Source: a virus. From it: a stretch of DNA of 64,000 nucleotides. The notes below the pieces were generated by a model. The model was not told where the DNA came from, did no database searches, and saw only the letters and a program-made list of their open reading frames with translations. Shown here in pieces: positions 10,188 to 36,062 of this stretch. Position numbers and translations under genes: made by a program. Position 1 is the first letter of the stretch; each line of letters opens with the position of its first letter. The stretch spans positions 1 through 64,000 of IMG/VR virus record IMGVR_UViG_3300047089_000113. One strand, 5' to 3'.

Positions 10188-11104
10188 GCCGAGCCTCCGA
10201 TTGCCAGCGTGGCGTTGCGCCAGGTGATCACGCAGGTGGCCTGGCCGGTGCTGTCCTGGCCGGTGAATCTCACGACGGTTGACCCCGGCTGCGCCTGCAT
10301 GCTGATCATCGGGCTGCCGGTGAGCAGGCCCGCCACGCTGCTCGTGTTCAGGATGGCCGTCCGAGCCCACGGGCGGGTGTCGATCACCAGCGTGTCCGTG
10401 GCCTTCATGACGCCGTTGTACCCGATCGAGACCGGCGTGTTGACGAAGACCAGGCCGGGGTAGCTGATCGGCCCGGTGATGGTGATCACCGGCCAGGTCG
10501 GCAGCGAGCCGGTGTTGACGATCGCGTTCTGCTGGAAGATGTTGCTGGCGGCGAGCTGGTACGGCGGGGTCAGCGGCGGCGTGATCGTGCCGAAGAAGCT
10601 CGGCCGCTGGGTGAGGTTCAGCACAGTCGGGATGTCGGAGTACCAGATGGTGTCGGCCGCCTGGAACTGGGCGGTGAACGGCACCACGCCCTGGTAGACC
10701 ATGCCGTAGGTGGGCACGATCTTCCGGCCGCGCCCGTAGCAGCGCCGGACCACGTTGCTGCCGGGGTAGTAGCCCCGCAGCACCTGCACCGTGTTGTCCG
10801 TCAGCCGCACACTGGGATCGTTCCAGGCACCCGCCAGCGCCGAGTAGGCGTCCATGGCCAGCGCCCCCTGGGCTGGCGAGGTGAGCGCGTAGCCGGTCTG
10901 GGTGATCACCATGCCGGGCAGCGTGTCGATGCCGAACAGCGTCCCGTCGTGCCCGGTAACCGCCTGGTCCTGGACCACCAGCGAGCCGGTGTCGGTGGCG
11001 GTGTTCTGGATCTGGATCGAGCTGGCCCCGCGCCCGTAGACGTAGCCCGGCCCGCCTTCCCGGCCGATGCTGTACTGGCCCACGGCCAGGGTCGGGTCAG
11101 CCAC
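10184..11104 (-). CDS. Distal tail protein (Dit-like)
   Basis: 306 aa immediately after the TMP; NTGSLPTWPVITITGP motif. Confidence 0.75.
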   Translation of the reverse strand: MADPTLAVGQYSIGREGGPGYVYGRGASSIQIQNTATDTGSLVVQDQAVTGHDGTLFGIDTLPGMVITQTGYALTSPAQGALAMDAYSALAGAWNDPSVRLTDNTVQVLRGYYPGSNVVRRCYGRGRKIVPTYGMVYQGVVPFTAQFQAADTIWYSDIPTVLNLTQRPSFFGTITPPLTPPYQLAASNIFQQNAIVNTGSLPTWPVITITGPISYPGLVFVNTPVSIGYNGVMKATDTLVIDTRPWARTAILNTSSVAGLLTGSPMISMQAQPGSTVVRFTGQDSTGQATCVITWRNATLAIGGSA

Positions 11105-20220: not shown

Positions 20221-20835
20221 TTACCTCCCGGCCTGAGCTTGCGCTGCCCTCGCTCGGGTGCGCTCGGGCAGGATGTCCTCGGCGCTGACGTACGTGCCGC
20301 CCGCGCCGGGGTCACCGTCGCTGTTCTCGCTGCCCGGCACCGGCTCACCGGTCTCCGGGACCTCCTGCTGGAGGATCGCGGATGCGCCAGCCGGGTCGGG
20401 CAGCGGCATGCCCGAGCCCGGAGCGGGCGTTGCGGGCTGCCGCAACGCCCCCGAGACCGCGCGTGGGGGGACACGCTGCGGTGCCTCGCTGCTGGACTTC
20501 GGGCCGGTCGCGGGCCGGATAACCGGCACCCTGCGTCCGTCTCCCGGCCCGTGCCGCATGTAGCCAGCCGCTTCCTCGGGCGTGAGATTGACCGTCTCGC
20601 CCGCCATCACCAGGTCCGAGCCGCGCAGCGGGTCAGTCCCGCGCCGGGGCACGTTCAGGTTGATCAGCGCGATGTACGGGTCGCCGGGCCTGGAGGCAGG
20701 CGTCTGCACCTGGCTCTCCCGCGCGAGCAGCTTGTTCATCACCTCGCGCTCGGCCTCGGACAGCGGGGTCATCTCCGATGCCTCGTTGATGACCGGCATT
20801 GGGCGTCCTGCGCCTGGCCGTGTCTGCGGGGGCAT
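20221..20835 (-). CDS. Hypothetical protein downstream of the capsid gene
   Basis: 204 aa, Pro-rich, coupled to the capsid stop. Confidence 0.6.
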   Translation of the reverse strand: MPPQTRPGAGRPMPVINEASEMTPLSEAEREVMNKLLARESQVQTPASRPGDPYIALINLNVPRRGTDPLRGSDLVMAGETVNLTPEEAAGYMRHGPGDGRRVPVIRPATGPKSSSEAPQRVPPRAVSGALRQPATPAPGSGMPLPDPAGASAILQQEVPETGEPVPGSENSDGDPGAGGTYVSAEDILPERTRARAAQAQAGR

Positions 20836-21746
20836 CAGACTCCGCTCAGCAGCACGATGGCCAGCGGCTGGTCCAGGCCGATGGCAGCGGCGCGCTGCGT
20901 GTCCGACCGCCAGGTCTTGCGCGGCTCGTCGCGGTAGAGCGGGCCTGCCATGAACGGCAGCTCGTCCGCGAAGAAGCCCGCCCGCTGGCGCTGCATGATG
21001 AGCGCGTTGCCCGCCGGGACCTGGCGGGAGACCATCACGTCCAGGTTGAGGATCTGCTGCGGGAGCGTGCCCGTGTACAGCAGGTTCTCGCTGGCGATGT
21101 CACCGATGTACGGCGCGGCGAACGTGGCGCTCTGGAGCAGCGTGTTCTTGGTGCCGTGGTTGATGATCAGCGTGTCGGCCTCGAATCCGAGCCACTGCGT
21201 CACGCCGCTCGGGGACACGATGTTGGCGTTCTCGATCAGGTAGACCGCCTGCATGATGTCGGCCCGGATGGTCGCAGCCGCGCTGGCCCAGGCGTTCGCC
21301 ACGGCGAGTGTCTGGATCGAGGCGTTGGAGACTACCGCCGAGTAGAAGGCGGTGTTCCACGAGTAGACCATCGTGTTCTTGACCTGCAAGAGCTGGCGGG
21401 TCACCGGGTCGATGGCCTGACGGCGGCGCATCTCATCGGAGACCATGATCGCCATCGCGCGCTCGTGGCTGAAGACCACTCGCGGGATTCCGACGCTGGT
21501 CGGCACGATCGGGACCTCACCGAACTCAGGCCGGATCTCCGGGTAGTCGTCGGCGTACAGAGGCGTGCTCTCGGCGTACCTGACCGCGCCGGATGGTGCC
21601 GCCCCGCCCGACCGCAGCACCGAGTCCATGACGAACTCGTTGCGCGTGATATCGAGGATGAGCTGGGGGATGACCAGCGGGTCCTTCAGCAGCTCGTTGA
21701 CGGTGATCCGTGGTGCATCGCTATAGCTCCTGGCACCAGTCGGCAT
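20835..21746 (-). CDS. Major capsid protein
   Basis: 303 aa after the scaffold and decoration genes. E.GEVP motif and C-terminal DQPLA.V.L.GV are typical of HK97-fold actinophage capsids. Confidence 0.85.
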   Translation of the reverse strand: MPTGARSYSDAPRITVNELLKDPLVIPQLILDITRNEFVMDSVLRSGGAAPSGAVRYAESTPLYADDYPEIRPEFGEVPIVPTSVGIPRVVFSHERAMAIMVSDEMRRRQAIDPVTRQLLQVKNTMVYSWNTAFYSAVVSNASIQTLAVANAWASAAATIRADIMQAVYLIENANIVSPSGVTQWLGFEADTLIINHGTKNTLLQSATFAAPYIGDIASENLLYTGTLPQQILNLDVMVSRQVPAGNALIMQRQRAGFFADELPFMAGPLYRDEPRKTWRSDTQRAAAIGLDQPLAIVLLSGV

Positions 21747-21757
21747 GACTCACTCCC

Positions 21758-22264
21758 TCAAATCTCGACTCGGCAGCGGCCGAAGAAGTAGGACGCGCCG
21801 CCCTGGCCGCCGATTTGCTGGGTGAGCATCCCGGCTGAGATGCCGCCGGGGTGCGTGCAGCGAGCGACGATGAGGTCAGCCGTGCCAGCCGCGTAGGCGA
21901 CCACGGTCCCGGCGTTGCCGCCGACCGCGCTGATCATCAGCGGCTGGCCGACGTAGGCCGCCCCTGAGTACCAGCAGAAGATGTCCACGCCGCCGTAGTA
22001 GACCGCCACGTAGTCAGTCAGCACGGAGATGTCAATCAGCGGCTGGCCGTAGGTGTTCGGCAGGCCGGTCTGGACGGAGATGGGCGCGGCATCACTTCCG
22101 GCCACGCCGAGCGCGTAGTTGACCGAGGGTGTCGCAAGCGCCACCGTCAGGTCTGTGGTACCCGGCGTGATCGAGTGGTGCATGACCCACTGACCGCCGT
22201 AGATCAGGCCGAACACCTGGTAGTTGGACGGGCCAACCTTGTAGTGCGGCAGGGCTCCTGCCAT
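21758..22264 (-). CDS. Capsid decoration/cement protein
   Basis: 168 aa, Gly/Ala-rich, ALGVA..DA motif, just upstream of the capsid gene. Confidence 0.65.
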   Translation of the reverse strand: MAGALPHYKVGPSNYQVFGLIYGGQWVMHHSITPGTTDLTVALATPSVNYALGVAGSDAAPISVQTGLPNTYGQPLIDISVLTDYVAVYYGGVDIFCWYSGAAYVGQPLMISAVGGNAGTVVAYAAGTADLIVARCTHPGGISAGMLTQQIGGQGGASYFFGRCRVEI

Positions 22265-22479: not shown

Positions 22480-23682
22480 CTACAGGCCCATCTGCTGCCT
22501 GGCGCGGTCGATGACCTCGCTGCGCGCCGTCTGCTCCGCGCTCGGCTGCGCGCCGGGCGGCTCGTCCATCGGGGTGCCCAGCTCCGCGCCCAGGTCGAGC
22601 ATCTGCGCCATCTTGGCGTACTCGCTCAGCACCTTGCGCATGACCTGGCCGACGTCCACCCGCTGGCCGTTGGCCAGGTCGATGGTGTGCCCGGAGCCCT
22701 GGAGCACCGGCCGGGCCAGGTCGGTGATGTAGGGCGGCACGCCGAGATCCGCGAGCTGCCGCTTCTCCACATCGAACGTCTGCGCCTCGAACCGCGTCTG
22801 GAAGACGCCAAGCTGGCGCTCGGTCTCATCCGCGCGGGAGTTGGCGAGGTCGATGGCCATCTGCGCCTCGGCCGTCAGGCCGGTGGTCTGCATGGCATCG
22901 GCGGTGTCGGCGTCAAGCCCGGCCTCGACGGCGGCCAGCTCGTCATCGTCCAGGGCGGCGATCAGGTCGGCCAGCTCGGCGTCGGTCAGCTCGTCATCGG
23001 CTGGCGGTGCGGGCGGCGTGCTGCCGTTACCAGCAGGCGGGGCTTGCTGCTGCCCGAGCAGCCGGTCCAGGGCAGCCGGGTCCATGTTGAGCAGCTTGCT
23101 CAGGTTGGCCTGCTGCTGGGGGTTCATCTGCTCGGGCATGGTCTCCACTTCCTGTCCGGCGTAACTCGATCCGGTGAGGTCTATAACGAGTGACGGCGTG
23201 TTGGCCGCCTCGATGGTCTGCCAGGCCCCGAGGCCCGGAATGCGCGGGTCCAGTGTCCCGAGCACGTGCTGAACGGCGGCAGGGTAGAACTTCCCGTCCG
23301 CGCGCTGGTACTGCTCGACTATCCGCGCCGATACGCCCAGGTACGGATTCTCCCTCAGCACCTGCTCGCCAGCCGGGGTCGGGTCGAGCGTGATATAGAG
23401 CCCGTCCGGCTCGGTCTGCATGTCCACGATCGTGCCGCGATGACGCTCCGGGTCATTGGTATGACTGTTGCCCGCGTCCGCGAGCTGGAAGGACACCTGG
23501 TCATACGCCCGGCTGCGGAACGCCTCTGCCAGCCCCGCCAGGTAGCCCGGCGTGAAGTGCAGCGTGCGGCCCTGGTACTGGATGTCCCCGATCGGCAGCA
23601 CCCGCTTGCGCCAGAGCTTGTTGCCCAGCTCGATCGCAGTGCCCCGGTCGAACGGGGTCAGCAGCGCGGCGAAAGCGGTCAT
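22480..23682 (-). CDS. Prohead protease/scaffold fusion (Mu gpI-like)
   Basis: N-terminal protease-like domain (SH..DP..H.G.I…DGLY…YLGVSARI…HVLGT.DP.IPGL) plus an acidic coiled-coil scaffold C-terminus. Confidence 0.75.
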   Translation of the reverse strand: MTAFAALLTPFDRGTAIELGNKLWRKRVLPIGDIQYQGRTLHFTPGYLAGLAEAFRSRAYDQVSFQLADAGNSHTNDPERHRGTIVDMQTEPDGLYITLDPTPAGEQVLRENPYLGVSARIVEQYQRADGKFYPAAVQHVLGTLDPRIPGLGAWQTIEAANTPSLVIDLTGSSYAGQEVETMPEQMNPQQQANLSKLLNMDPAALDRLLGQQQAPPAGNGSTPPAPPADDELTDAELADLIAALDDDELAAVEAGLDADTADAMQTTGLTAEAQMAIDLANSRADETERQLGVFQTRFEAQTFDVEKRQLADLGVPPYITDLARPVLQGSGHTIDLANGQRVDVGQVMRKVLSEYAKMAQMLDLGAELGTPMDEPPGAQPSAEQTARSEVIDRARQQMGL

Positions 23683-24293
23683 GAGGGTGCCCCGAACGAC
23701 TGGGCGCGCTTGGCGAACTTGTGCGCCTTGGCGTGGTCCCAGCCCTTGGCCTTCAGCTTCTTCCTGATGCTCAGGCCCTTGGGTGACAACTCGTTGTCGT
23801 CGGCGTCGGGCTCCTTGCCGCCGTTGGCCATGGTGACCCGAGCGCCGTCACCGGCTGAGCGCGCGGGCGTGGCCAGGGCGTTGATAGCGGGCACCCCGTA
23901 CTGCTCCATCAGCGGCGTCTGGACCGGCGGCGGCTGGAGCGCCCCGTCAGCAGGCTGGTCGGTGCCCCGGTTCCACAGGCCCAGCAGCTCGGCCAGGGCT
24001 CCGCGCTGGTGCACATGCGGCCGGGTGGACGTCTTGCCGCCGTAGACCGCCCGCCAGCCGTCCTCGTCCCTGATCTCCCCGATCAGCGTGCCGCCCCTGC
24101 GGTGCCGGATCGACGCGCCGCCGGTTGCGCTGCGGCCGATCAGGACGTCGCCGGGCGACGTGACCGGGTATCGCGGGGTGGCCAGCTCGACCCTGCTGCC
24201 CCTGGTGCGGCTGGCGATGTAGGCGGCTAGATGCTCGGGGTTGCTCACTCCGCGTACGGCTAGTGCTGCGATGGCAGCCTGCCGTGAGGCCAT
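23679..24293 (-). CDS. Head-module protein (204 aa)
   Basis: AGGAGG RBS before MASRQAAI. Contains a VELAT junction and a C-terminal KKLKAKGWDHAKA module. Confidence 0.65.
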   Translation of the reverse strand: MASRQAAIAALAVRGVSNPEHLAAYIASRTRGSRVELATPRYPVTSPGDVLIGRSATGGASIRHRRGGTLIGEIRDEDGWRAVYGGKTSTRPHVHQRGALAELLGLWNRGTDQPADGALQPPPVQTPLMEQYGVPAINALATPARSAGDGARVTMANGGKEPDADDNELSPKGLSIRKKLKAKGWDHAKAHKFAKRAQSFGAPS

Positions 24294-24378
24294 GACGCCT
24301 CCTAGACTCTCAACGTCTACTTGAAGGCCATCGTAGGCTGCCGCGTCCAGGAACGCATGACCCGGTATGCAGGAATCT

Positions 24379-24522
24379 TCAGGATTGCTGCTGCGCGATG
24401 GCCTGATCCGTAACCTCGGTGGCAAATTCCTCGGCGCGTTCTTCGTCCATGCCCTTGCTCACCAGAAGCTCTGTCCACACGTCGATGAGGTACTGGCGAT
24501 CCTCTGGTTTGACGGTCGCCAT
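24379..24522 (-). CDS. Small acidic protein (47 aa)
   Basis: Not in the track: MATVKPEDRQYLIDVWTELLVSKGMDEERAEEFATEVTDQAIAQQQS, with TGATG coupling. Confidence 0.6.
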   Translation of the reverse strand: MATVKPEDRQYLIDVWTELLVSKGMDEERAEEFATEVTDQAIAQQQS

Positions 24523-25391
24523 CACAGCTTCTTAAAGAACTCGATGATGGTCTGGATCAGGAACGGACCCACCGTGGCGATGATCGGCAGGATCTCGGGA
24601 GCGCCCGACTTCACCGCGAGATAGGCCAGGGCACCGCCCGTGACGGCAAGACCGGCCTCGGTGGCGAGCTTCATCTTGGCCTTGCGGCCCGCCCAGGTGT
24701 CTTCTTCCTTCTTGGCCTCTGCCAGCTTCTGGCTTACGAGCTGCTGGGCCTGGGCCACCGCCTGCTGGGCCTTGCTCTCGGCCAGCGGCGCGACCTGGGT
24801 GGCGATGAGCTGCTGGTGGATAAGCTGCTCGCGCCTGGTCGGCTGCACCTTGCCGCTGACCTGGTAGGCAACCTCGGCCGCCTTGTTCTCGGGCGCGATG
24901 TCCGCCGGGACCTTGATCTGCTTGGCCAGCTCCTGCTGGATGAGCTGGCGCAGGTGCTCGTCGGAGACGTCGCTGCCCGCGCCGAGACTGCCGGTGCTGC
25001 TGGCGTGGCGGGACTGGGCGGCCTGTATCCGCCGCAGCCGTGCCGCCCGCTTGGCTTCCGTGCCGACAGCGCCGCCGGGGCCGACCCACTTCCCGCCCTT
25101 GCCCCGTCGTTCGGTGCGCCAGGCTTCGTTGGCCAGGTCGATGAGCTGGCTGGTGATGGTGTCACCCGCCAACTGCCCCAGGAGCGTGCCTTCTCCGACC
25201 ACGGGTCCAGTATCCAGCGTCCCGGCCAATCTGGAAAGCATCACGCCCGCATCCTGGATCTCGCGCAGCTCCGCGCCGGTCGCGGCGATGGCCATCTCGC
25301 GCACCTGGCTGAGCGCGCTGGCGACCCGGCCCGCCGGGTCTTCCCAGGCCCATTTGGCGATGCTGAGTGCCCGCTGCCCGTCTGGTGTCAT
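24522..25391 (-). CDS. Head-module protein with tag motif and C-terminal hydrophobic hairpin
   Basis: 289 aa; contains LIDLA-NEAWRTERRGKGGKW and two C-terminal hydrophobic helices. Confidence 0.7.
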   Translation of the reverse strand: MTPDGQRALSIAKWAWEDPAGRVASALSQVREMAIAATGAELREIQDAGVMLSRLAGTLDTGPVVGEGTLLGQLAGDTITSQLIDLANEAWRTERRGKGGKWVGPGGAVGTEAKRAARLRRIQAAQSRHASSTGSLGAGSDVSDEHLRQLIQQELAKQIKVPADIAPENKAAEVAYQVSGKVQPTRREQLIHQQLIATQVAPLAESKAQQAVAQAQQLVSQKLAEAKKEEDTWAGRKAKMKLATEAGLAVTGGALAYLAVKSGAPEILPIIATVGPFLIQTIIEFFKKL

Positions 25392-28300
25392 GCCGCTTCC
25401 GCCATCTCGCGCTGCTTCTCGACCACCTGCTGGAAGGCCGCGCTCTTGGCTGACCTGAACGCCTGCCTGGCCGCGCCCTCCGGGTTATCGGTGTTCCACT
25501 GCTGAAGGATGCTCTCGGTGATCGTGCTGGCCATCTGGTCCATGAACGCCTTGTCCGCGCGCATCTTCGGCTCGTCGGTGGTCATCGCCAGGGCGAGTTG
25601 CGCCGCCATGGCCTGGACCTTGCCGGATGCTCCCTGGCGGTTCACCTGGTTAGCCAGTTCAACGATCCGCGCCCTGCCCTGCGGGCTGTCCAGGATCAGG
25701 TTCTCCTGCTGGACCACCTGCTGCACCCAGTCCTGGGCGTCCTTGGTCTGCGACGGGTAGTGCCCCCAGGCGTTGCCGTTGTGGATCTCGTCCGGGTTGT
25801 TGATGGTCTCGGCCATCTCCTTCACGGTGTGACCGGGGAACGTCCGGGCCTGCCGGTCCCCGATGCCCATCTGGTCAAAAAACTCGGGAGCGTGGTGGAT
25901 CGCGCCCAGCTCGGTGAAGCCTTCCTCGATCTGGGATACGGCGAAGACCTGGTACGCCTTCTCGTTGGCCTTCGCCGTGCCCGCCGGGACCACGCCGTGG
26001 ATCATCTCGTGCGCCAGCACCTCGAACGCATCGGGGTAGCGGACGGGATCGTCCGGGCGGTCGCTGGCGTCCTTGATCGCGGCGGCTACGTTGTCCGCGA
26101 TGGACAAGGTGCCGTTCCACTCCATCTCGGCCAGGATGTGCGGCTTGGACTCCTTGCGGTAGAGGCTGGCTTCACCGTCCCATTCCTCGTGACTGCCGCC
26201 GAGCAGGCGCGGGATGATGTTCGCCGCCTTGGTCGTCTCGGCCACGACCGCCGTATCCAGCTCCTGCTCATTCGGGATCGGCGGGCCGACGAACGGGACA
26301 GCCGCCGCGCGCAGCAGCTTGCCGATGTGCATCTGCTCGGTGCGGCCCCTGGTCCAGCGTCCCCGGAAGTCACGCAGCTCATCGGGATGGAACGCGAGGT
26401 CTAGGAGCGGTGCGTCAATCCCGCCTGGACCTGCTCGGCTATCTTCTCCGCTGCCGCCAGCCGCTCGTCCTCCGGGAGGTCCCAGTAGCCAGGCGGGATA
26501 GGCACGATCACCTTCGGCGTTGGCGTGCTCGATGATGCTTCCGCCACCGGTTCCTCCAGTCTGGATCTCCGCGCCGTTGTTCACGTCCCAGATGGCGATC
26601 TGGTTGCGCTCGGCTGCCGCGCGCACCGCCTCGGACTTGCTGGTGATGTTGTCGCTCGGCTCCAGCCATAGCTTACCGCCGTGTACCCACCCGCCGAGGA
26701 ACGTGCTCCGGTCCCTGAAGGCCGACTTCTCGGACATCAGCATGTCGTCAATAGCACGGGTCAGGGCCTTGCGATCGTCCAGGACCGACTCGGGGAAGAC
26801 GTGCGTGTGATCGGTCTGCGCCACCATGTAGCCGGTCTTCGGCTCACCGCCGGTATGCAGGCTGACGCTGAAGCCCTCGCGGTTCTGGCGCATGATGTCG
26901 GCGGCCTCGCCTACCGCGCCGAACTTCGCCCAGCGCCCCCGGTCATCGCGGAGCTGGTCCGGGTTGAACGCCATGTCGATCAGCGGCTCGCTGTCCGTGT
27001 TCGCGCCCTCGACCAGCCTGGCGTTGCCCAGCGCCCGGCCGCCGATGCCCATGCCGACAGCGAAGGAGATGGCGTAGGGGATGGCCAGCCGGGCTGGCAG
27101 GCCGATCCGCTGGACCTCGATCTCCTTCGGCCCGAGCCCGGCGTACGCCAGCGCCTCATCTGACGCCCATCGGTGGTGCCCGTCGATCACGTAGTTGTCG
27201 CTGGTGACCCAGATGGGCTCCTTCAGCATCTTCCGCACGGCCGGGACGTTCTTCTCGGCCGCCGCCGTGATGCCCGCCACCGTCGCGGCGGTGAGCTGGG
27301 TCTGGGTGGCGCGCAGGTTACCGGCCGGTACGCGCTCGTTCTTGACGTCGATGCCGTCGCGCCTGAGCTGGTCACGGAACTCGGGGTCCAGCTCGATGAA
27401 CTTGTTGGCCCCGCCCGCCAGCAGCGCCGCCTCGGAGCCGGGCCGGGCCGGGCCGTTGAGCTGCGGCATGTCGGTGCGCGGGATGCCCAGGGTCTGCTCG
27501 TTGAACAGCCGGGTGCCCTTGACGCTGACCAGGCCCAGGTCCCAGGGCGGCTCGTTGTCCCGCGTGTAGCCCTGCGCGCTGGCCTTCGCGTTCACCGCGT
27601 CGAGCAGCGGCTTGATCTCGGCCGGGCTGCTCAGCCGGACGTGGCTGCCAGCCGCCATCAGGTCCACGGCGCGGCCCATGTCGCCCTGGGCGTCGATCGG
27701 GTCCTCGGGGGTACCGGCACCGTCAGGCCGTCCCGGCAAGTTCAGCGGCTTGCGCTGGTCGGCTGCCTCCATCGACGGGATCTGCGGGTCGTAGCCCTCG
27801 AACCGCCCCCGGTAGCCGTGCCGCTCCAGGCTGGCCGCGTGCGACTCCAGCCCGCCGCCGCCGTGGGTCCACCGGCCGGTGATGTCCCGTTCCTCGTGCA
27901 GCCAGCCGGTGCCCATGTCAAGCACCTGGGCGGACAGCAGGCGTTCAGTTTCCTGAACGTTCGAGAACTGCTCGGTCAGCAGCCCGGTGGTGCCGGGCAC
28001 CAGCGTGTAGCCGTGCCGGGCGGCTTCCGCCTGCCACTTGTCCCAGGCGTTGCGCAGCATGGTGGACCGGCCCTTGGACAGCCGCCGTCCGCCCCGGCTG
28101 GCGGCCACCGATGAGGACAGCTCGTGCGCGGCCTCGTCCTCGGCCTCGTTGATCCGCTGCTGGCGCAGCCAGGTGATCGCCTGCACCTGGTGCGGGCTGA
28201 CCGGCGTGCCCCGCGCGCTGATCTCCAGGGCGGCGTTGCGGTAGGTGTCGGCCACGTACTGGTAGTAGCGGTCCTTGCCGATCGGGGCCTTGTCGGCTTC

Positions 28301-28948
28301 CTTCTTGGGCAGCCGCTCGTCCATAGCCACGGTCATCGCGTGCCGGTCGATGACCACCTGGCCGAGGTGATCGTCCGGCTCGTCACCGCCCGCGCGGATC
28401 AGCCGGGCGAACGCCTTGGTCTTGGAGCTGTTGTTGGCCTCGTCGGCGTCCATGCCGTCGATGGCTTCCTGGGCGTTGGCCTGCATCGAGCCGGTGATCA
28501 TGCCCTCGCCCGGCCCGAGCGCCCGGTTCTCGTCCAGCGACCGGTCGGCGTTGAACATGTTGACCGCCCAGCCGGTCTGCGGGGACAGGGCGGCGATCAC
28601 GCCCGCGTTCTTCTCGATGTCTCCCTGGTCCATCTTGGCGGCCAGGTTGTGCGCGTCGGCGTACCAGCGCATCCCCTGGGCGCGCTCCTGGGCATCGGAA
28701 TCGTCGTAGGCGGCGACCACGTTGGCCGCGCTGACCGGGTGCTCCTTGAAGAACGGGTGATCGGCGGGGGTGCGGTAGTAGTAGGACCCGCGCCGCTTGG
28801 CCAGGATCAGCCGGTCGGGGTCCGGCGCGGTGTACGCCTCGCCGCCCTTGGTCCAGCGCCCGCGCTCGTCGCGCTTCTCGAACGGGTCGAACCGCCAGCC
28901 CAGCTCCAGCTCATCCGGGCCGGTGAACCACTCCAGCAGCTCGGTCAT
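25388..28948 (-). CDS. Four-module polyvalent protein: HhH-glycosylase-like (DUF7178-like), ParB/Srx-like, unknown alpha/beta domain, HExxH zincin
   Basis: 1186 aa. Motifs AALSPQ..W/VVIDRH/QVQAITW, YVIDGHHRW, GGW…NQIAIWD and LAHEMIH…EEGFTE, each preceded by an RD..GRW tag. Confidence 0.75.
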   Translation of the reverse strand: MTELLEWFTGPDELELGWRFDPFEKRDERGRWTKGGEAYTAPDPDRLILAKRRGSYYYRTPADHPFFKEHPVSAANVVAAYDDSDAQERAQGMRWYADAHNLAAKMDQGDIEKNAGVIAALSPQTGWAVNMFNADRSLDENRALGPGEGMITGSMQANAQEAIDGMDADEANNSSKTKAFARLIRAGGDEPDDHLGQVVIDRHAMTVAMDERLPKKEADKAPIGKDRYYQYVADTYRNAALEISARGTPVSPHQVQAITWLRQQRINEAEDEAAHELSSSVAASRGGRRLSKGRSTMLRNAWDKWQAEAARHGYTLVPGTTGLLTEQFSNVQETERLLSAQVLDMGTGWLHEERDITGRWTHGGGGLESHAASLERHGYRGRFEGYDPQIPSMEAADQRKPLNLPGRPDGAGTPEDPIDAQGDMGRAVDLMAAGSHVRLSSPAEIKPLLDAVNAKASAQGYTRDNEPPWDLGLVSVKGTRLFNEQTLGIPRTDMPQLNGPARPGSEAALLAGGANKFIELDPEFRDQLRRDGIDVKNERVPAGNLRATQTQLTAATVAGITAAAEKNVPAVRKMLKEPIWVTSDNYVIDGHHRWASDEALAYAGLGPKEIEVQRIGLPARLAIPYAISFAVGMGIGGRALGNARLVEGANTDSEPLIDMAFNPDQLRDDRGRWAKFGAVGEAADIMRQNREGFSVSLHTGGEPKTGYMVAQTDHTHVFPESVLDDRKALTRAIDDMLMSEKSAFRDRSTFLGGWVHGGKLWLEPSDNITSKSEAVRAAAERNQIAIWDVNNGAEIQTGGTGGGSIIEHANAEGDRAYPAWLLGPPGGRAAGGSGEDSRAGPGGIDAPLLDLAFHPDELRDFRGRWTRGRTEQMHIGKLLRAAAVPFVGPPIPNEQELDTAVVAETTKAANIIPRLLGGSHEEWDGEASLYRKESKPHILAEMEWNGTLSIADNVAAAIKDASDRPDDPVRYPDAFEVLAHEMIHGVVPAGTAKANEKAYQVFAVSQIEEGFTELGAIHHAPEFFDQMGIGDRQARTFPGHTVKEMAETINNPDEIHNGNAWGHYPSQTKDAQDWVQQVVQQENLILDSPQGRARIVELANQVNRQGASGKVQAMAAQLALAMTTDEPKMRADKAFMDQMASTITESILQQWNTDNPEGAARQAFRSAKSAAFQQVVEKQREMAEAA

Positions 28949-31900
28949 GCTGCCTTCGCCCGTGCCTGCTTCTCCAGCTCACCGGCCTCGGCCTTGCCAG
29001 CCGCAGCCCTGACCTCGGGGTGCACCTTGCCGCCGCCCGCTGCCCAGCGCCGGATTGCCGCTCGGGCAATCGCGTACGCCTTGTCCTCGGACATGCCGCG
29101 CTTCTCGATCAGTGCCTTGACGATCTGCTGGAGGTACGGGGTGTGACCGAGCCCCTTGACGTCATATAGTCCGGGACCGCCGGGCTTCCCGCGCGGAGCC
29201 GGTGTGACACTGAGCACACCCGTCTGCGCGGACAGCTCGGCGGCGAACTGGCTGACGGATGAGACGGTCTCCATCTGCGGGATGCGCAGCGCGCCGCGCG
29301 TCGGGTTGGACGGCAGGCGGGTGCCGACGTAGTGACCCGGATGCGCTGCCCGGCGCGAGATCGGGCTGTAGGTCCGCTCCCGCCAGCCGGTGGCCTGCTT
29401 CGGCACCCGGTCCAGTTGCTTCTCCAGCTCGGCCAGGTCCCTGGTCCACATGCCGCTGGCCTCGGTGACGTTCGCCTGCTTGGCGACCTCCAGGTGTATC
29501 CGCGCCGACTTCATGTCCCGCCCGGCCAGCGAGTGAGCCAGGTTGTGCAGCGCGGTCTGCAAGGTCGATGACCTGTTGCCCGGCGCGGTGTCGGAGCTGA
29601 CCGCCTTCGCGCCCAGATCCTCGATCGCGCGCAGGTGCTCGAACGAGCCGGGCTGGAGCCCGGCCGCGAACTTGGTCGGGTCCACCTTGATCCAGCCGTG
29701 GATGTAGCCCTTCGGCCCGACCAGATCGAGCGGCGTGGCGAGATTCCTGGCCCTGGCCAGCACCGCCTGCGCCTTGCTGTGGGACGCGCCGCCCTTGCGC
29801 AGCTTCGCGTACAGCTTCTGCTTGCGCGCATCACCGCCGAACATCGCGCTGAAGCCCCTGGCCTCCTTGCCGGACAGGTGCCTGCCGAACGGGCCGGGGA
29901 TGCCCGCCACGCCGGTTACCGCCTCGTTGCGCATCGCCTGCTTGCTGACGTGCCCGCCGCTGACGTGGCCGCGCCTGGCCCCGAGCATGCTGGCCATGCC
30001 CGCTGCCTCGTGCCGGGAGACGTGCTTGCCGGTCAGGGCCGAGATCGGCATCTGCGCGGGGTCCTTGATCCAGCCGTGCCGGTAGCCCTTCGGGCCTGCC
30101 AGCTCGATGGCGTCGGTCACGTCCTCCCAGGACAGCGCGGCAGCCCGCTTCGTGTAGCTGGCGATCTCCCTCGCGTAGGTGCCGATCTGCCGGTTGATGG
30201 CCGCCGCCTCGGACGCGGCGGACAGCGGCCCGGCCGCCTTCTTGGCTCCCGCCGCCTTCCCGGTCTTGGCCCTGGCACCCGCCGCCGAGATGGCTGCCGC
30301 GCCCCTCTTGGCCGGTGCGCCCTTCTTGGCCGGGGTGGACGTGGCGGCCTTGCCGATCTGGCCCGCCTGGGTGGCCTTGTTCCGGGCGTCCAGCGCGGTG
30401 ATCCGGCCGCTGGCGAGCGCCTTCAGTATCCGGCGCAGCGTCTCGATCCTGGCCCGGTCATTGGCGATGGCCGCGAGCAGCGCAGACTTCGCCTGCTGAT
30501 TCGCTGACTTCTGCGCGGGCTTCTTCTGGGCTGCCCCGCCGCTGCTGCCCTTGATGAACTGCCCGCCGGTAGCGATACCGGCACCCGCGCGGGCCTGGCC
30601 AGGGTTGCCAGCCGGGTTGAACAGCTCTACAACGCGAAAGGGCGCGGCCCCGGTAGGCGTGGCAAAGCCAGCCGGGGGCACGGCCTTTCCCGCGTCAAAG
30701 CTCTTGCCGATGCTCCGCAGCACGGCCATCGCCCGGCTGTGCGAGTGCCCCCTGGCCCGCAGCGTCTTGTAGGCCCGCTGCTTCCTCGGGCTCATGCTCC
30801 TGACCCGGCTCTCCAGCGGCAGGCCGGTGCCCGCTGCCGCCGCCTCGGTGGCCGAGCCAGCCTGGAACAGCTTGCCCAGTGACCCGCCGGACGCCGGGAC
30901 GAAGTGATGCGTCGGGGTCCTGGGGAAGCGCAGGGACGGCGGGCCTTCCACGAACTTGTACTTCTTGCCCCGGATCGTGATCGGCGGCCCGGCCCCCCTG
31001 GCGGCCTCGGCCTTCTTCTGCGCCTCGATGCCCCCGCCGATCTTGATCCAGCCGTGCCTGAAGCGGAACGCCAGATCGACCTCGTTGGAGAACTGCGCCG
31101 TGGCGAGCTGGCGGGCCTGCTCCCGGTGGTTGGCCTCGGAAGCGAAATCGCCGCGCCTGTGCGCCGCGCCCGCTATCTTCAGGTGCAGCGCCATGGACAG
31201 CTTGCGCTTCTTCTCGCTGCGCCCGGCCGACTGGCTGGCCCCCAGTGCCCTGATCAGCCCGGCTCGCCGGGCCATCTTCATGCTCGCGGTGCCCGCCATC
31301 ATGCCGGGGACACCCTGCCACCGGCCGTGCCGGTCGCGCACCTCATCCGGGTTGTACCGCAGCTCGACCACGAAGCGGTCCTCGATGCCGTACGCGGCCA
31401 GGTTGAACTCGCTGCCCATCGTCTTAGCACCGGGCTCGGCCCAGGTGCCCTTCAGGTGGTGCGCCACGCCCATCCGCTTCGCGTTCTTCTGGATGGCACG
31501 CTTCAGCACTCCGCGCTTGCCCGGCGCGACCCGGCCGACCGCCTTCAGCGCCTTGTGCAGGTAGCTCACGTTCGGCATCGGGTAGCTGGTGCCGTACGCG
31601 GTCTGTCCCTTCTTCTGGAGCGCCCGCCTGCCAGCCGCCGTCTCATGATGGGGCACGGCGGCCAGCTCGATCGCGCCCAGCACATCGCCCCAGCTTGCGG
31701 CGACGTTCATCGGCGGCGGTGCCGGTGCTGATGATGTGCGCATGGCTCTCTCCTGGGCCTGCTGGTCCCGCTCGTCGCGGCGTTCCTGGCCGATAGCCCG
31801 GTTGGACCCGTGGATGTCCTCGATGTCCTTGACCAGCAGCAGGTGCCGGTGGGCCTGCTGCATGAACGCCTTGCCGCGCATGTGCCCGGCGTCATCGTGC

Positions 31901-32151
31901 ACGCCGTGGCGTCGGAGCTGGACCGGCTGGAGCCCGAAGATCGCGGCGTTCAGGTGACGCTGGGAGCTATTCGTGCGCCCGGCGTCCAGCTCGCGCGCCG
32001 CGTCCCGCAGGTGGTCGTGCACCGCCATCTCGGGGTAGGCATCGGCCATGTCGGCGGCCAGCTTGCGCAGGCTGGCCGATGTTCGCTGCTTCATCGGGCC
32101 GGTGGAGATGGCCCGGTGGAACCGGGGAGGTCCCTGCGGCTGCTCGGACAT
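28945..32151 (-). CDS. Basic multi-module head-associated polyprotein
   Basis: 1068 aa, Lys/Arg/Ala-rich, with at least 7 [DE]L junctions. Includes a DUF6582-like module (GTSYPMPN..L.KA…GR…I.KNAK.MG). Confidence 0.7.
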   Translation of the reverse strand: MSEQPQGPPRFHRAISTGPMKQRTSASLRKLAADMADAYPEMAVHDHLRDAARELDAGRTNSSQRHLNAAIFGLQPVQLRRHGVHDDAGHMRGKAFMQQAHRHLLLVKDIEDIHGSNRAIGQERRDERDQQAQERAMRTSSAPAPPPMNVAASWGDVLGAIELAAVPHHETAAGRRALQKKGQTAYGTSYPMPNVSYLHKALKAVGRVAPGKRGVLKRAIQKNAKRMGVAHHLKGTWAEPGAKTMGSEFNLAAYGIEDRFVVELRYNPDEVRDRHGRWQGVPGMMAGTASMKMARRAGLIRALGASQSAGRSEKKRKLSMALHLKIAGAAHRRGDFASEANHREQARQLATAQFSNEVDLAFRFRHGWIKIGGGIEAQKKAEAARGAGPPITIRGKKYKFVEGPPSLRFPRTPTHHFVPASGGSLGKLFQAGSATEAAAAGTGLPLESRVRSMSPRKQRAYKTLRARGHSHSRAMAVLRSIGKSFDAGKAVPPAGFATPTGAAPFRVVELFNPAGNPGQARAGAGIATGGQFIKGSSGGAAQKKPAQKSANQQAKSALLAAIANDRARIETLRRILKALASGRITALDARNKATQAGQIGKAATSTPAKKGAPAKRGAAAISAAGARAKTGKAAGAKKAAGPLSAASEAAAINRQIGTYAREIASYTKRAAALSWEDVTDAIELAGPKGYRHGWIKDPAQMPISALTGKHVSRHEAAGMASMLGARRGHVSGGHVSKQAMRNEAVTGVAGIPGPFGRHLSGKEARGFSAMFGGDARKQKLYAKLRKGGASHSKAQAVLARARNLATPLDLVGPKGYIHGWIKVDPTKFAAGLQPGSFEHLRAIEDLGAKAVSSDTAPGNRSSTLQTALHNLAHSLAGRDMKSARIHLEVAKQANVTEASGMWTRDLAELEKQLDRVPKQATGWRERTYSPISRRAAHPGHYVGTRLPSNPTRGALRIPQMETVSSVSQFAAELSAQTGVLSVTPAPRGKPGGPGLYDVKGLGHTPYLQQIVKALIEKRGMSEDKAYAIARAAIRRWAAGGGKVHPEVRAAAGKAEAGELEKQARAKAA

Positions 32152-32154
32152 GGC

Positions 32155-32829
32155 TCACACTCCCGCCATAGCTGGCTCGGGACTGGTGCTGGGTAGCATT
32201 CTCGCACCGATGCGCGGCGGCCCCGCGTAGCACCGGCAGTGCGGGTGCACCGAGCCGGGGTAGCCGATCAGCGGCACCGAGCTGGCCCGGAAGTTCGCGC
32301 CGTTCGCGGCCCGGCAGTCGGCGCTGGTCCGGGAGTCGAGCACCGTGTTCCAGCCGAGCATGTCGCCCCAGGTCCACGCGGCCATGTCCACCTGCATGGC
32401 CGCCTGGGCACGCTGCCAGATGGCGTCCCGGTGCTGGCCGAAATAAAGGCGCTCGCGGGCCATCCCAGCCGCGAGCGCCTTTATCACTGCCTCCCCGCGT
32501 GACCGGGCCTCAACCATGTCCCTGGTCAGCCGCCGGGCTGCGGCCAGGGCGAACTGGGCGCGGCGGATCAGGTTGGTGCGGCTGGCGTTCATCGTGGCCG
32601 ATCCCGCGACCCCGGTCTGCTCGGGCGGCATCGCCATCACGACCTCCAGCGCGGCCCGCATCGCGCCCCGGCTGACCTTCCAGGTGACCAGCGCCGCGCC
32701 GCCGAGCATGGTCAGCGCGGCGACCGCGCTGGCCGCGCCGACCAGCGCGGTGGCGATGGCCGTCACCGCCGCCGCGTCAGCCGCCGCGTCCTGCTGCGGC
32801 TCCGGTGGCGGCTGCTGCGGGGTGCTCAC
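32155..32829 (-). CDS. MuF-like (SPP1 gp7 family) minor head protein
   Basis: W.TVLDSRT..DC…NG…PG.VHPHCRC signature; follows the portal gene. Confidence 0.85.
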   Translation of the reverse strand: MSTPQQPPPEPQQDAAADAAAVTAIATALVGAASAVAALTMLGGAALVTWKVSRGAMRAALEVVMAMPPEQTGVAGSATMNASRTNLIRRAQFALAAARRLTRDMVEARSRGEAVIKALAAGMARERLYFGQHRDAIWQRAQAAMQVDMAAWTWGDMLGWNTVLDSRTSADCRAANGANFRASSVPLIGYPGSVHPHCRCYAGPPRIGARMLPSTSPEPAMAGV

Positions 32830-34403
32830 GCCAGCCGTCCGGGCGGCGGGACACTCGGCGGCTTAGCAGGCGGTGTCCGCTGCTGTGCCGGGGCCAGCGG
32901 CGCTCCGGGCGGCGGTCGCATCTGCGCGCCCTGCGGACGCCCGGCCGCGCGGTTGGCGATGGCAACGCCCGCGCCCGCCAGGCCCTGGAGCCCGCCGAGC
33001 GCCCCGGCGGCCTCGGGCGGCATGCCGGGCGGCGGCTGGGCCTGCAACTGCTCGGCCCGCTGGCTGGAGGTGGACATCAGCGCGGCGTGCACCTGGTCCA
33101 CGTCGAGCTGGAGGACCGAGGCCATCCGCTCGGTGATCAGGTCCACCACCTGGATCGGGATGTGCAGCGCGGGTGCCGCCACGATCTGGCCGAACAGGGT
33201 CAGCAGCGCCTGCTCCTGCTCATCCTGGAGCGGGCCGAACTTGGCCTGCGGGATCGCGGCCTCGGGACCGAAGTTGAGCACGGTCAGCGGCATGATGACC
33301 TGGTTGGAGTACGCCTGCGCGATCTCGGCAGCCACGCCCTGCCGGGACTTGAGGTAGAAGCTGGACTGGTCCTGGCTCAGTGCGTAGGAGCCCTTGCCGC
33401 CTGTTGCCGAGCTGGTCAGCGCCATGAAACCGGCCAGCACCGAGTGCACCTGCCAGCCCTCCAGGAAGTTCAGCGCCTCCACGAAGAACTTGCCGCCGTC
33501 GCCGCTGTTCTCCATCATCTCGAACGCCTTCTGGCCCGCCTGCGGCTGCTCCATGCCGACCACGCCCGAGGACTTCAGCGAGGCGATCGAGTCGGCGCGG
33601 TTGTTGGCGGACGGCTGGTCCGGCCCGTACACGACCACGCGGGGCAGCGCCTGGGTCTCCAGGAAGTGGTACCAGAGGTAGAGCAGCTTCATCTTGGTCT
33701 GGTAGCACCAGTAGCTGACCTCCATCTCCGACGCGCCGGTCAGCGGCTCGCGGTGCTTGCCGTGCGTGTAGATGAAGCTGCGGACGTGCGGGATGTCCAC
33801 GTAGCCGGGGACCTTCTGCTTGGACGCCGTGCTCATGAGCTGCCCGCCGAACAGCCACACCTGCTGGCGGAAGCCGTGCGGCGCGGCGGTCTTGGCGTTG
33901 TAGCGGGCCTGGCAGGTGGCGCTCGGCCGGAACGCGATCTTGTCGTAGATGATCTTGCCGTCGCTCTCGCGGATCTTCCAGACCTTCTCGAAGAACGCGC
34001 GCCGGTAGATCTGGCCGGACGTGATCTGGCCGATCAGGTCCACGTTGGGCGTCTTCATGCCGCCGATGTGGTCCGGCGTCAGCAGGACGCTGGTAGCCAG
34101 CTCCAGCTCGCCCTTGTCGCCCTTGGCCCCGGTGATGTCAAAGTCGGCCTCGCGGATCGGCAGGGTCAGCGCGGCCTCGACGGCTGAGCACAGCCCGTCG
34201 CGGCTGAACATCACCTTCATGTCCCGGCTTGACCACTCGCCGTAGTCAAAGACGTCGCCCTCGCCGTAGTAGGCGAATAGCCGCTGGCCCCAGTCGAACT
34301 GCGTGCCGATCTCCGGTCCCAGGAGCTGGCCCTTGGTCGCCTTCAGGTCCGGCAGCTTCAGCACCTGCGCGAGCGTGCCGGTGGCGTTCTGGCGAGGCGG
34401 CAT
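32826..34403 (-). CDS. Portal protein (Mu gp29/DUF935-like)
   Basis: 525 aa after TerL. FFEKVW, SVLAGF.L…GSYALS and NFGP..P motifs. Confidence 0.85.
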   Translation of the reverse strand: MPPRQNATGTLAQVLKLPDLKATKGQLLGPEIGTQFDWGQRLFAYYGEGDVFDYGEWSSRDMKVMFSRDGLCSAVEAALTLPIREADFDITGAKGDKGELELATSVLLTPDHIGGMKTPNVDLIGQITSGQIYRRAFFEKVWKIRESDGKIIYDKIAFRPSATCQARYNAKTAAPHGFRQQVWLFGGQLMSTASKQKVPGYVDIPHVRSFIYTHGKHREPLTGASEMEVSYWCYQTKMKLLYLWYHFLETQALPRVVVYGPDQPSANNRADSIASLKSSGVVGMEQPQAGQKAFEMMENSGDGGKFFVEALNFLEGWQVHSVLAGFMALTSSATGGKGSYALSQDQSSFYLKSRQGVAAEIAQAYSNQVIMPLTVLNFGPEAAIPQAKFGPLQDEQEQALLTLFGQIVAAPALHIPIQVVDLITERMASVLQLDVDQVHAALMSTSSQRAEQLQAQPPPGMPPEAAGALGGLQGLAGAGVAIANRAAGRPQGAQMRPPPGAPLAPAQQRTPPAKPPSVPPPGRLA

Positions 34404-34406
34404 CAG

Positions 34407-36062
34407 CTACTTCCATTCCCGCCGGTTGGGGCTCTGCCCGTCCGGGGTGTCATCCTCGGCCGGGGCGAACGTATCCAGGGACCAGTCACTGCCGCCATCG
34501 TAGGCTCCCCCGTGAGCCTCGGCCAGCCTGCGCTGCGCCCTGGTGCCGGTCGGGCTGAACGTCGAGTCGGCCAGGTGACCGGTCACGTCGGTGCCGGTGT
34601 TCAGGTCATCGGCGCGTATCCACTCGCGCTTGCCGCCTGCTACCGGCGGGCCGAACCAGGTGTCCAGGAACGGGTAGCAGCCCCAGACGAGGGAGTCGAG
34701 CCGGTCGGGGGAGCGCTCACCAGCCGCCCCGGTGAAGCTGCACATCTGGTCTTCCAGCTCCACGAAGCGCTCGGTGTCGGTGTGCCAGATCCGCTCGCTG
34801 GTCCTGGCGTCGGTGATCTGGTAGGTGACCTGCCGCTGGCAGTGCCGGACGATCTTGCGCTCGTACAGCGCGCTCACCGGCTCGGCGCGGGTCCGCTTGG
34901 CCTGGCTGGCGTGCACCTCGCGGTACTTGCACCGGCCGGTCTCCTTCATCACCTGCTCGAACGTGGCGCTCAGCCAGCCGCCGCCGTGGTTCTTCTCCAC
35001 CACCAGCGTGGCGTCCAGCTCCTGGGCCTTCTTGATCACCCGCTTGGCGAACATGACCGGGCTCTCCTGCCCGCCCCAGCTCTCGATCACGTACAGGTGC
35101 GGGTCGTCTATCAGCCCGCGCGCCACGATGGTGTACGCCTGCTCGTCGGAGTCCTCCCGGCCGTCGCTCGGGTCCACGCCGATGAAGACCTGGGTCAGCC
35201 AGGGCGGCCCGCCTTCCTCGCCCACGGCCGGGCACTGGCTGGCCTCGATCAGCTCGCGGGTCCACAGCGCGTTGGCGACGTCATCCAGCAGCTCGCCTTC
35301 CAGCTCCTGGCGCTCCAGCCGGGTGCCGCGCGCCGCGCCGACCACGGCGCGGTAGAACGCCTCGGACAGGTTGGCGATGTTGTCGATGGTGCGCAGCCGC
35401 CGGGTGATCACGCCGCCGTGCTCGGGCTCGTCGCGGATCAGCGACCGGATCAGCTTGCGTGCGCTCATCGAGACCTTCGGGGTGCCGGTGGCGATGATCT
35501 TGGACACGCCCTGCCGGACGGCGAACTTCAGCGACTCGCCCCAGGCCACCTCCCACTTCTTCCACAGCCCGATCTCGTCGCACCAGGCGGCGCGCAGGTT
35601 GCGGCCCTGGATGCGCAGGCCCCCCTCGTCCGCTGAGTCCACGTAGACGATCAGCCCGGAGTGCAGCACCACCTGCCCGTAGGTGCGCCAGGCGCTGCGC
35701 ACGATGTGCGACTTGTGGTCCTTGACCTCGGCCATCGAGGTGCCCAGCGCCCGCAGGATGCCGGATTCGCCCTCGACGCACTTGGTCCAGGCGTCGGCGT
35801 AGGTGGGCGCGATGATGCCGTACTCGCCCTCGGTGTCGGTGTCGTCCAGGATGATGTCTGCCAGCCCCTGAGCCCCGGCGCGGGTCTTGCCGCTGCCCCG
35901 GCCGCCCTGGAGATAGAACACGCGCCACGGGTCGGCCAGCGGCGGCAGCACCTGCTCGGGCCGGGCCACCCCGGAGCGCCAGCGGACGCGCGGGTCCTTG
36001 ACCGGCTCAGCCAGCCGCTCGTCCCACTCGGCCAGGATGACGTCATCAGCAGTGGCAGTCAT
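34407..36062 (-). CDS. terL: Terminase large subunit
   Basis: Walker A GGRGSGKT, Walker B WCDE, and nuclease motifs GVDP, VEKNHGG and SPDRLDSLVW. Confidence 0.95.
   Translation of the reverse strand: MTATADDVILAEWDERLAEPVKDPRVRWRSGVARPEQVLPPLADPWRVFYLQGGRGSGKTRAGAQGLADIILDDTDTEGEYGIIAPTYADAWTKCVEGESGILRALGTSMAEVKDHKSHIVRSAWRTYGQVVLHSGLIVYVDSADEGGLRIQGRNLRAAWCDEIGLWKKWEVAWGESLKFAVRQGVSKIIATGTPKVSMSARKLIRSLIRDEPEHGGVITRRLRTIDNIANLSEAFYRAVVGAARGTRLERQELEGELLDDVANALWTRELIEASQCPAVGEEGGPPWLTQVFIGVDPSDGREDSDEQAYTIVARGLIDDPHLYVIESWGGQESPVMFAKRVIKKAQELDATLVVEKNHGGGWLSATFEQVMKETGRCKYREVHASQAKRTRAEPVSALYERKIVRHCQRQVTYQITDARTSERIWHTDTERFVELEDQMCSFTGAAGERSPDRLDSLVWGCYPFLDTWFGPPVAGGKREWIRADDLNTGTDVTGHLADSTFSPTGTRAQRRLAEAHGGAYDGGSDWSLDTFAPAEDDTPDGQSPNRREWK

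Follow-up and report, generated by a model that had tools for sequence, protein, structure and literature searches.

The choice that a phage makes of the non-structural proteins to be carried in its capsid is known in detail mainly for T4. In that phage the internal proteins IPI-III and Alt are processed by the prohead protease gp21, and the ejection proteins of phiKZ and SPN3US are processed by gp175 and gp245, respectively; these gp21-fold proteases act at short motifs with an acidic residue, T4 gp21 and SPN3US gp245 cut themselves and the core proteins at many sites, and basic internal proteins and enzymes are injected with the DNA (PMC9958956, PMC5694885). The phage-type polyvalent proteins were defined by Iyer, Burroughs, Anand, de Souza and Aravind in 2017, who predicted that they are packaged and processed by metallopeptidases (MPTases) or by assemblin-like peptidases (PMC5512222). 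In the MuF-associated polymorphic toxins of prophages, variable effector modules are borne on a head-packaging module, and these proteins too have been predicted to be carried inside the capsid (Zhang et al. 2012, PMC3482391). Here we describe a locus from the virus record IMGVR_UViG_3300047089_000113, a single contig of 80,594 bases with 69% G+C, the first 64 kb of which constitute the window to which all coordinates below refer unless stated otherwise. Between the genes for a MuF-like minor head protein and the major capsid protein (MCP), on the minus strand, the locus encodes large "cargo" proteins and a 400-aa protein with a predicted protease fold, and the modules of the cargo proteins are joined by conserved linkers made of a short junction and a downstream tag. 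The simplest reading of these linkers is that a lineage-specific protease site is followed by a shared header peptide, the tagged chains being cut at the junctions by the 400-aa head protease, and on balance we consider this probable, if only just.

Like the polyvalent proteins, the cargo proteins are large, consist of several domains and have portal, terminase and MuF genes as neighbors, and they draw on a repertoire of ParB-like, zincin MPTase, ADP-ribosyltransferase (ART), kinase, NUDIX and GNAT domains; the traits of the class that we found here are four folded modules in one chain, a head/packaging neighborhood, and a shared domain repertoire with shuffling. Tag-bearing relatives also match the Pfam families ART-PolyVal and LPD1, which were defined from the work on polyvalent proteins. 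Unlike in that account, the modules considered here are separated by a junction specific to the protease family and by pan-phage headers, and the same junction occurs in a separate head protease; we found no inter-module linker code in the text of PMC5512222 as searched. With the T4, phiKZ and SPN3US systems the locus has in common a gp21-fold protease, short acidic-residue motifs that would serve for self-cleavage and multiple cuts, and basic proteins and enzymes as probable injected cargo. In T4, however, each cargo protein is encoded by a separate gene and its conserved targeting peptide, on the upstream side of the cut, is discarded, whereas here the cargo is made of polyproteins and the peptide lies downstream, where it would be retained. 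The motifs differ as well, h-[DE]-[LM]-[AG] (h, hydrophobic) here as opposed to (L/I)-x-E or [SAG]-x-E in the other systems. A T4-type capsid targeting sequence, i.e. a conserved N-terminal propeptide of 10–20 aa upstream of the cut that the protease removes, was not found at this locus: the leaders ahead of the junction are short and show no conservation beyond [ST]-x-Q-h-h, and the conserved tags stand downstream of it. As for the polymorphic toxins, they likewise carry variable modules on a head-packaging module, but here MuF is a separate gene of 224 codons, the cargo resides in downstream multi-module genes, and no immunity gene was noted (PMC3482391).

An earlier note, made from the letters of this DNA alone, had described the block as polyproteins whose modules are separated by one short junction, usually with a tag behind it. 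Every junction and tag that it listed is present at about the coordinates that it gave, and the open reading frames (ORFs) between MuF and the protease gene, coding for 1068, 1186, 289, 47/48 and 204 aa, are arranged on the minus strand as it described. When the entire genome (80,594 bases) was searched in its six frames, five copies of R[DE]xxG[RK]W and three of HGWI were detected, exclusively in the 1068-aa and 1186-aa proteins, and each of these RD-type and HGWI tags stands directly behind an h-[DE]-[LM]-x junction. The junction motif [ILV][DE][LM][AG], which was defined post hoc and which holds in 116 homologs of the 400-aa protein, has a density per 1000 aa of 3.6 in four cargo proteins and of 10 in the 400-aa protein, compared with 0.64 elsewhere in the proteome (the other 21,744 aa). 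This enrichment of 6–15 times was accompanied by a junction count that none of 2000 composition-preserving shuffles reached. Single copies of the motif in the portal (LELA) and in MuF (VDMA) are taken as chance occurrences because orthologs do not keep them. Also set aside was a VELA without a tag in the 1186-aa protein (residue 1096), which lies inside a confident helix of the structural model.

The tags belong to two header types, F/Y-N-P-x-E-x-R-D-x-x-G-R-W and G-P-K-G-Y-I-H-G-W-I. Among the 53 database homologs of the 1186-aa protein we counted 147 distinct RD-type tags, 122 of which have a junction 4–20 aa upstream (about 10% expected by chance), with the consensus [ST]-x-Q-h-h-[DE]-L-[GA] ahead of the tag. 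Between the junction and the RD core there are anywhere from 3 to 13 residues, and hence we regard the linker unit as bipartite.

The 400-aa protein (22480-23682, minus strand) yielded no Pfam or PHROG family match at E <= 0.01, with Peptidase_S77, Peptidase_S78 and Mu-like_Pro among the families covered, and its family profile compared with PDB sequences returned coiled-coil noise only. It belongs to a distinct sequence family of more than 806 members, none of which is named. In an alignment of 25 diverse homologs (A1) the N-terminal 150 residues are highly conserved, and H74, S118, H139, D145, D168 and L169 are invariant. The AlphaFold model has a predicted local distance difference test score (pLDDT) >90 over the protease domain (residues 1–148), and Foldseek identified the T4 gp21 structure 5JBL as its best match (E 8e-5, prob 1.0). 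This was also seen in the VIA comparison with T4 gp21 (Z 11.1, 131 aa aligned, root-mean-square deviation 3.4, residues 2–146), in which the herpesvirus assemblin proteases came next (Z 5–7), and many "prohead protease" models in BFVD match the 400-aa protein as well. Judging from the model, the 400-aa protein is probably a head protease with the gp21/assemblin fold. The protease domain is followed by a disordered linker (pLDDT <50) that holds the invariant D168-L169 within the motif VIDLT (approximately residues 165–169; 23173-23196, minus strand). Three further conserved junction motifs are located in the acidic helical tail (22840-22863, 22669-22692 and 22585-22608, minus strand), and the N-terminal region contains AIELG (23623-23643, minus strand). 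In the 116 homologs the mean number of junction motifs is 5.25, as compared with 0.54 in shuffled sequences. Thus, the ORF that the earlier note had named a protease/scaffold does combine a prohead-protease fold with a helical tail rich in conserved junction motifs. Another member of the family is encoded at 9989-11095 of the viral record L025 (L numbers are our handles for the records compared), and gp14 of Streptomyces phage Araceli, which is annotated as "hypothetical", is 45% identical to the 400-aa protein and has eight junction motifs. Members of this family are labeled "hypothetical protein" in the isolated Streptomyces phages Araceli, Henoccus, JackieB and others, and in the same records the small MuF gene is labeled "capsid maturation protease and MuF-like fusion protein". 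These labels look like an annotation gap or a mislabel.

Many viral contigs contain the GPKGYxHGW tag; two positions ahead of it stands either L (17 sites) or K (32 sites). At the L-type sites this L is preceded by D/E in 16 cases and by N in one, whereas the K of the K-type sites is preceded by anything. The 400-aa protease family was found in 8/8 L-type records that were informative, i.e. had enough DNA, and an HK97-like protease in 0/5 of those tested; for the K-type records the corresponding figures are 0/12 for the 400-aa family and 9/12 for an HK97-like protease, which is sub-threshold for Peptidase_S78. Just past the catalytic domain the K-type proteases have h-h-x-K-[AS] where the 400-aa family has h-h-D-L-[ST], and RD-type tags in K-type phages likewise stand behind a lysine. 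The portal families differ, PF04860 in K-type and PF06074 in L-type phages, and MuF was found in two of five K-type records; the phrog_1650 capsid family gave no match in K-type phages, in a search whose positive controls gave none either. The expectation that the tag stays constant across genomes is therefore borne out, with the junction co-varying with the protease family. In the K-type phages the PF04860 portal and the HK97-like protease are fused via a GPKGYIHGWI tag to downstream cargo modules (8153-11416 in L016, 4625-8416 in L009, and a minus-strand ORF of 506 aa in L026). The complete 106-kb record L045, with terminal repeats, is K-type and tag-bearing with the junction V-K-V, and in it we found neither the 400-aa family nor the HK97-like protease family of the other K-type records.

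Among 1.84 billion proteins, a profile of the 36-position RD unit matched the representatives of 825 clusters (E <= 0.001), mostly proteins of 800–3800 aa with 2–12 copies of the tag. Within any one protein the residues that immediately precede the tag are uniform, but they differ from protein to protein (e.g. F/L-A, E-A, D-A, K-E), and the tag core is conserved throughout; in 81 tag-rich proteins the four pre-tag residues are 37% identical within a protein as opposed to 13% when shuffled among proteins, a value reached in 0/2000 trials. A sample of 33 tag-bearing proteins matches ART-PolyVal, LPD1, Phage_Mu_F, Zeta_toxin, GNAT, Acb1, NUDIX and ParB_N, and because of these matches we consider the tags, on sequence grounds, to be a hallmark of the phage-type polyvalent proteins; the setting of the distant tag-bearing proteins was judged by Pfam content alone. 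The earlier note had framed the system as one of an actinophage with a Mu-like head. The head is indeed Mu-like here, having both a Mu-type portal (PF06074) and MuF (PF04233), but the tags extend to at least 825 protein clusters. No description of the tags, the string GYIHGW included, was found in the literature searched, the coverage of which is incomplete, and PMC5512222 was the one pertinent paper found there that bears on polyvalent proteins and prohead-protease cleavage together.

The 1186-aa acidic protein (25388-28948, minus strand) shows how the linkers are placed relative to folded domains. Its Pfam and PHROG matches (PF23802 at residues 74–261, phrog_2859 at 470–624 and phrog_17808 at 746–796) cover three of its four modules. 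The AlphaFold (AF2) model of the whole chain, computed from an alignment of 54 sequences (mean pLDDT 78), comprises a DUF7178 module (approximately residues 36–326), a ParB-like module with DGHHRW (388–641), a small alpha/beta module (674–809), and a zincin module with HEMIH (HExxH...EEG; 888–1186). The segments with pLDDT <50, residues 1–35, 327–380, 642–673 and 810–887, are the four junction+tag units, all on the minus strand: LELG with an RD-type tag in the N-terminal leader (residues 11–33; 28850-28918), with which many homologs begin likewise, VLDMG with TGWLHEERDITGRW (338–362; 27863-27937), LIDMA with FNPDQLRDDRGRW (654–676; 26921-26989) and LLDLA with FHPDELRDFRGRW (846–868; 26345-26413). 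The tagged junctions of this protein are thus located in disordered linkers between folded modules, as the proposal of the earlier note required. In the homologs DUF7178 is combined with PI3/PI4-kinase-like, NUDIX, Arr-ms, ADPrib_exo_Tox, Zeta_toxin and hydrolase modules. A Foldseek search with the whole model found nothing at E <= 0.001, the weak rows being thermolysin-type zincins and ParB-N.

These weak fold matches, together with the HExxH...EEG module that is present in the 1186-aa protein and in 44/53 of its homologs, raise the question of whether the zincin-like metallopeptidase at the C-terminus could itself cut the chains, in cis or in trans, with the head protease uninvolved; autoproteolysis by such modules has been proposed, with P1 DdrB as a precedent (PMC5512222). 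We regard this as rather improbable, for the junction is densest in the head protease, where it is conserved in 116 homologs, and the junction class follows the head-protease family. Moreover, Araceli combines a motif-rich protease with a tagged cargo protein that lacks HExxH, and most tagged K-type loci show no such zincin. The distribution of the junction agrees better with cleavage by the 400-aa head protease.

In related IMG/VR contigs TerL, portal, MuF, protease and MCP are collinear and 50–96% identical, and the cargo genes code for proteins of 787–1822 aa that have only some modules in common. Some cargo modules form protein N-termini, separate ORFs or other parts of proteins in the relatives, and the homology breakpoints lie a median of 26 residues from junctions, compared with 53 at random (P ~1e-4, with breakpoints that are not independent and with the a-priori junction list of the earlier note, AAELS included); with strictly defined junctions alone the test is weak (P 0.03). 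In accordance with the earlier suggestion that downstream domains swap behind constant tags, modules are exchanged among relatives with breakpoints near the junctions. Such strong mosaicism, with breakpoints clustered near junctions and modules that turn up as separate ORFs or in other positions, would also be expected if the conserved linkers were mainly recombination joints for module shuffling, like the pre-toxin motifs of polymorphic toxins, and had no role in assembly. However, identical tag residues in the window are encoded by different codons in about half of the cases, and the DNA identity between tag copies is 40–70% over ~60 nt, from which it follows that the tags are conserved at the level of the peptide and not of the DNA. 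Recombination joints would also leave unexplained the abundance of the motif in the protease and the protease-linked L/K switch, and we find this explanation very hard to credit.

Our reading builds on the motif statistics, the protease fold, the location of the linkers, the mosaicism of the modules and the co-variation of junction and protease, all of which the sequences and models show, and from them we infer packaging, cleavage, the exact bond and the role of the header. We propose that the MuF-to-capsid block encodes phage-type polyvalent proteins bound for the capsid interior, in which the first part of each linker, [ST]-x-Q-h-h-[DE]-[LM]-[AG], would be the recognition and cut site of the 400-aa protease, and the second part, past a variable spacer, a pan-phage header peptide of the RDxxGRW or GPKGYIHGWI type. 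The chains would co-assemble into the procapsid, where the protease would release itself at the invariant D-L past its catalytic domain and, at three or four more sites, shred the acidic helical tail that it carries. The chains would then be cut into approximately 16 pieces: the 1068-aa protein would yield eight basic ones of 10–18 kDa and the 1186-aa protein four enzyme-like ones of 20–37 kDa, while the 289-aa and 204-aa proteins would give two pieces apiece. The header would stay on the new N-terminus, probably holding the piece in the core or on the DNA, so that the piece leaves with the genome. The L/K correspondence in the sequences suggests that the scissile bond follows L or K, and the analogy with gp21 suggests that it follows the acidic residue. 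Capsid retention, DNA binding or ejection as roles of the tag are speculation.

Encapsulin cargo-loading peptides, short conserved peptides by which diverse cargo is brought into a shell of the HK97 fold, usually occur once, at the C-terminus, and have no link to a protease site; the likeness of our linkers to them is by description only, as short conserved peptides for capsid cargo. It nevertheless brings to mind that the junction+tag could be a flexible peptide that docks uncut to the protease tail, the shell or the core, so that full-length proteins are packaged and the motif in the tail reflects shared binding. The unit is kept intact even at protein N-termini with leaders of only 6–24 aa, the conserved [ST]-x-Q-h-h stretch goes beyond a minimal protease site, and polyvalent proteins of the N4 vRNAP type are packaged unprocessed (PMC5512222). 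Docking without cleavage is in our opinion unlikely, since the variable spacing of junction and tag argues for two separate elements, the invariant D-L in the disordered linker past the protease domain fits self-release (cf. the auto-cleavage of gp21 and gp245; PMC9958956, PMC5694885), and the multiple sites in the acidic helical tail fit scaffold clearance. Several points nevertheless weigh against cleavage by the head protease, beginning with the fact that for this phage and its relatives cleavage is itself something that we infer. The junctions behind very short leaders fit a binding epitope equally well, and, relative to the putative cut, the conserved peptide is on the downstream side, opposite to that of the T4 capsid-targeting sequence, which is removed. 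Several motifs of the protease tail lie in or beside predicted helices or strands of the AlphaFold model, H74, S118, H139 and D145 are candidate catalytic residues by conservation alone, and the zincin module of the 44 homologs is another possible cutter. Finally, each of the two junction classes coincides with one phage clade, and the L/K co-variation hence amounts to few independent events.

More tentatively, and with considerable doubt, we suggest that several tailed-phage lineages share a two-part address for capsid cargo: a cut site that tracks the protease ([DE]-L, x-K, F/L-A, E-A, D-A and others) and a near-universal retained header of the RDxxGRW or GPKGYIHGWI type, which would most simply bind packaged DNA and thereby hold each freed module in the head until it exits with the genome. 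Since the header does not depend on which portal, capsid or protease family a phage has, it would bind something common to all heads; that K- and L-type phages differ in portal and protease families, with MuF in two of five K-type records, likewise leads to the conjecture that its partner may be something universal such as DNA. If such a code is true, any protein could be loaded into these capsids by adding ~30 residues. Protease-specific junction and shared header together form a rule, readable from sequence, that marks the modules of a large and fast-evolving set of probable injected proteins, including kinases, ADP-ribosyltransferases, NUDIX, ParB-like and zincin modules and, in relatives, the anti-CBASS Acb1. 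With this rule the cargo modules of hundreds of uncultured phages, and the limits of each module, become predictable from the sequence, and the rule gives a putative function to a large unannotated protease family that carries the label "hypothetical protein" in isolated Streptomyces phages. It will be interesting to study cargo loading in culturable relatives such as Streptomyces phage Araceli, where it becomes testable.

The 1068-aa protein (28945-32151, minus strand) is very basic (isoelectric point, pI, 10.9), and its seven junctions bound eight pieces of 10–18 kDa with fragment pI of 9.4–11.7. It has no Pfam or PHROG match, ESM Atlas gave no usable match, and tblastn against isolated phages gave no match. 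In sequence character its pieces look more like internal DNA-associated head proteins than like enzymes or effectors. The earlier note had spoken of about a dozen small effectors; the multi-module chains with tagged linkers that it envisaged are present, but the pieces of the 1068-aa protein resemble basic internal proteins rather than effectors. The first of the junctions (all on the minus strand), AIELA at residues 158–165 (31657-31680), is untagged, and the module that follows it (residues 166–252) has a homolog with which a protein of L008 begins. It is followed by VVELR with the RD-type tag YNPDEVRDRHGRW (31309-31377), EVDLA with the HGW-type tag FRFRHGWIK (31030-31089), a unit also found in L020 and in Araceli gp9, and VVELF with an NP...GGQF tag variant (30529-30639), to which the NPxQxR...G[GTK]W variants of L024 and L005 are related. 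AIELA with GPKGYRHGWIK (30061-30117) and PLDLV with GPKGYIHGWIK (29683-29739) come next, and AAELS (29182-29250; IELS or LEFS in L020 and L004) precedes a mobile C-terminal module of 95 aa. Four homology breakpoints fall at residues 972–991, by AAELS. This module of about 95 aa (residues 974–1068; 28945-29229), which begins with TPAPRGKPGGPGLY and continues with a helical part, stands alone in L004, as an ORF of 159 aa that follows a junction, and it is also found inside proteins of L009, L014 and L024 and at the N-terminus of Araceli gp9.

The 289-aa protein (24522-25391, minus strand) is composed of an acidic N-terminal piece, the junction LIDLA with the tag NEAWRTERRGKGGKW (25080-25157, minus strand), and a basic piece ending in hydrophobic helices. 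The junction is kept in 6/6 orthologs; L005 has a different C-terminal part after it. Two hydrophobic, transmembrane-like segments are found at the C-terminus (24522-24700). From its sequence, the 289-aa protein could be a membrane-active ejection protein. In the 204-aa protein (23679-24293, minus strand) the junction RVELA (24150-24200, minus strand) precedes a conserved C-terminal module; [VL][ED][LMF]A is kept in seven of eight orthologs, and the homology with L002 starts 3 aa past the junction. The longest ORF at this gene codes for 248 aa (23679-24425, TTG start) and overlaps the 47/48-aa ORF (24379-24525, minus strand), but the real gene is probably 23679-24293, because the orthologs align from M45. 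A short basic helical hairpin, L..(K/R)G.SHS(K/R)A, recurs just upstream of junctions in the 1068-aa protein (~29740-29810 and ~30680-30750) and at the C-terminus of the 204-aa protein (~23690-23760).

The late operon on the minus strand comprises, in this order, TerL, a Mu-type portal, MuF, the cargo genes, the 400-aa protein, two small proteins and MCP, with stops and starts that overlap or abut. The large terminase is encoded at 34407-36062 (minus strand), the portal at 32826-34403 (minus strand; PF06074, E 8.7e-28), and the 224-aa MuF-like protein, at the upstream edge of the cargo block, at 32155-32829 (minus strand; PF04233, E 4.2e-7, and phrog_115). A megablast search of the region against isolated phages gave no match. 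Between the 400-aa gene and the MCP gene lies a gene for a 168-aa protein (21758-22264) that is 57–88% conserved in relatives and has no BLAST match to the annotated scaffolding protein that occupies the same position in Araceli. The MCP (20835-21746, minus strand; phrog_1650, E 1.4e-73, and PF25209) is without the junction motif and forms the downstream edge of the head module. Further downstream, a protein of 1339 aa is presumably the tape-measure protein, as judged by its length and position alone; if so, the phage is a siphovirus.

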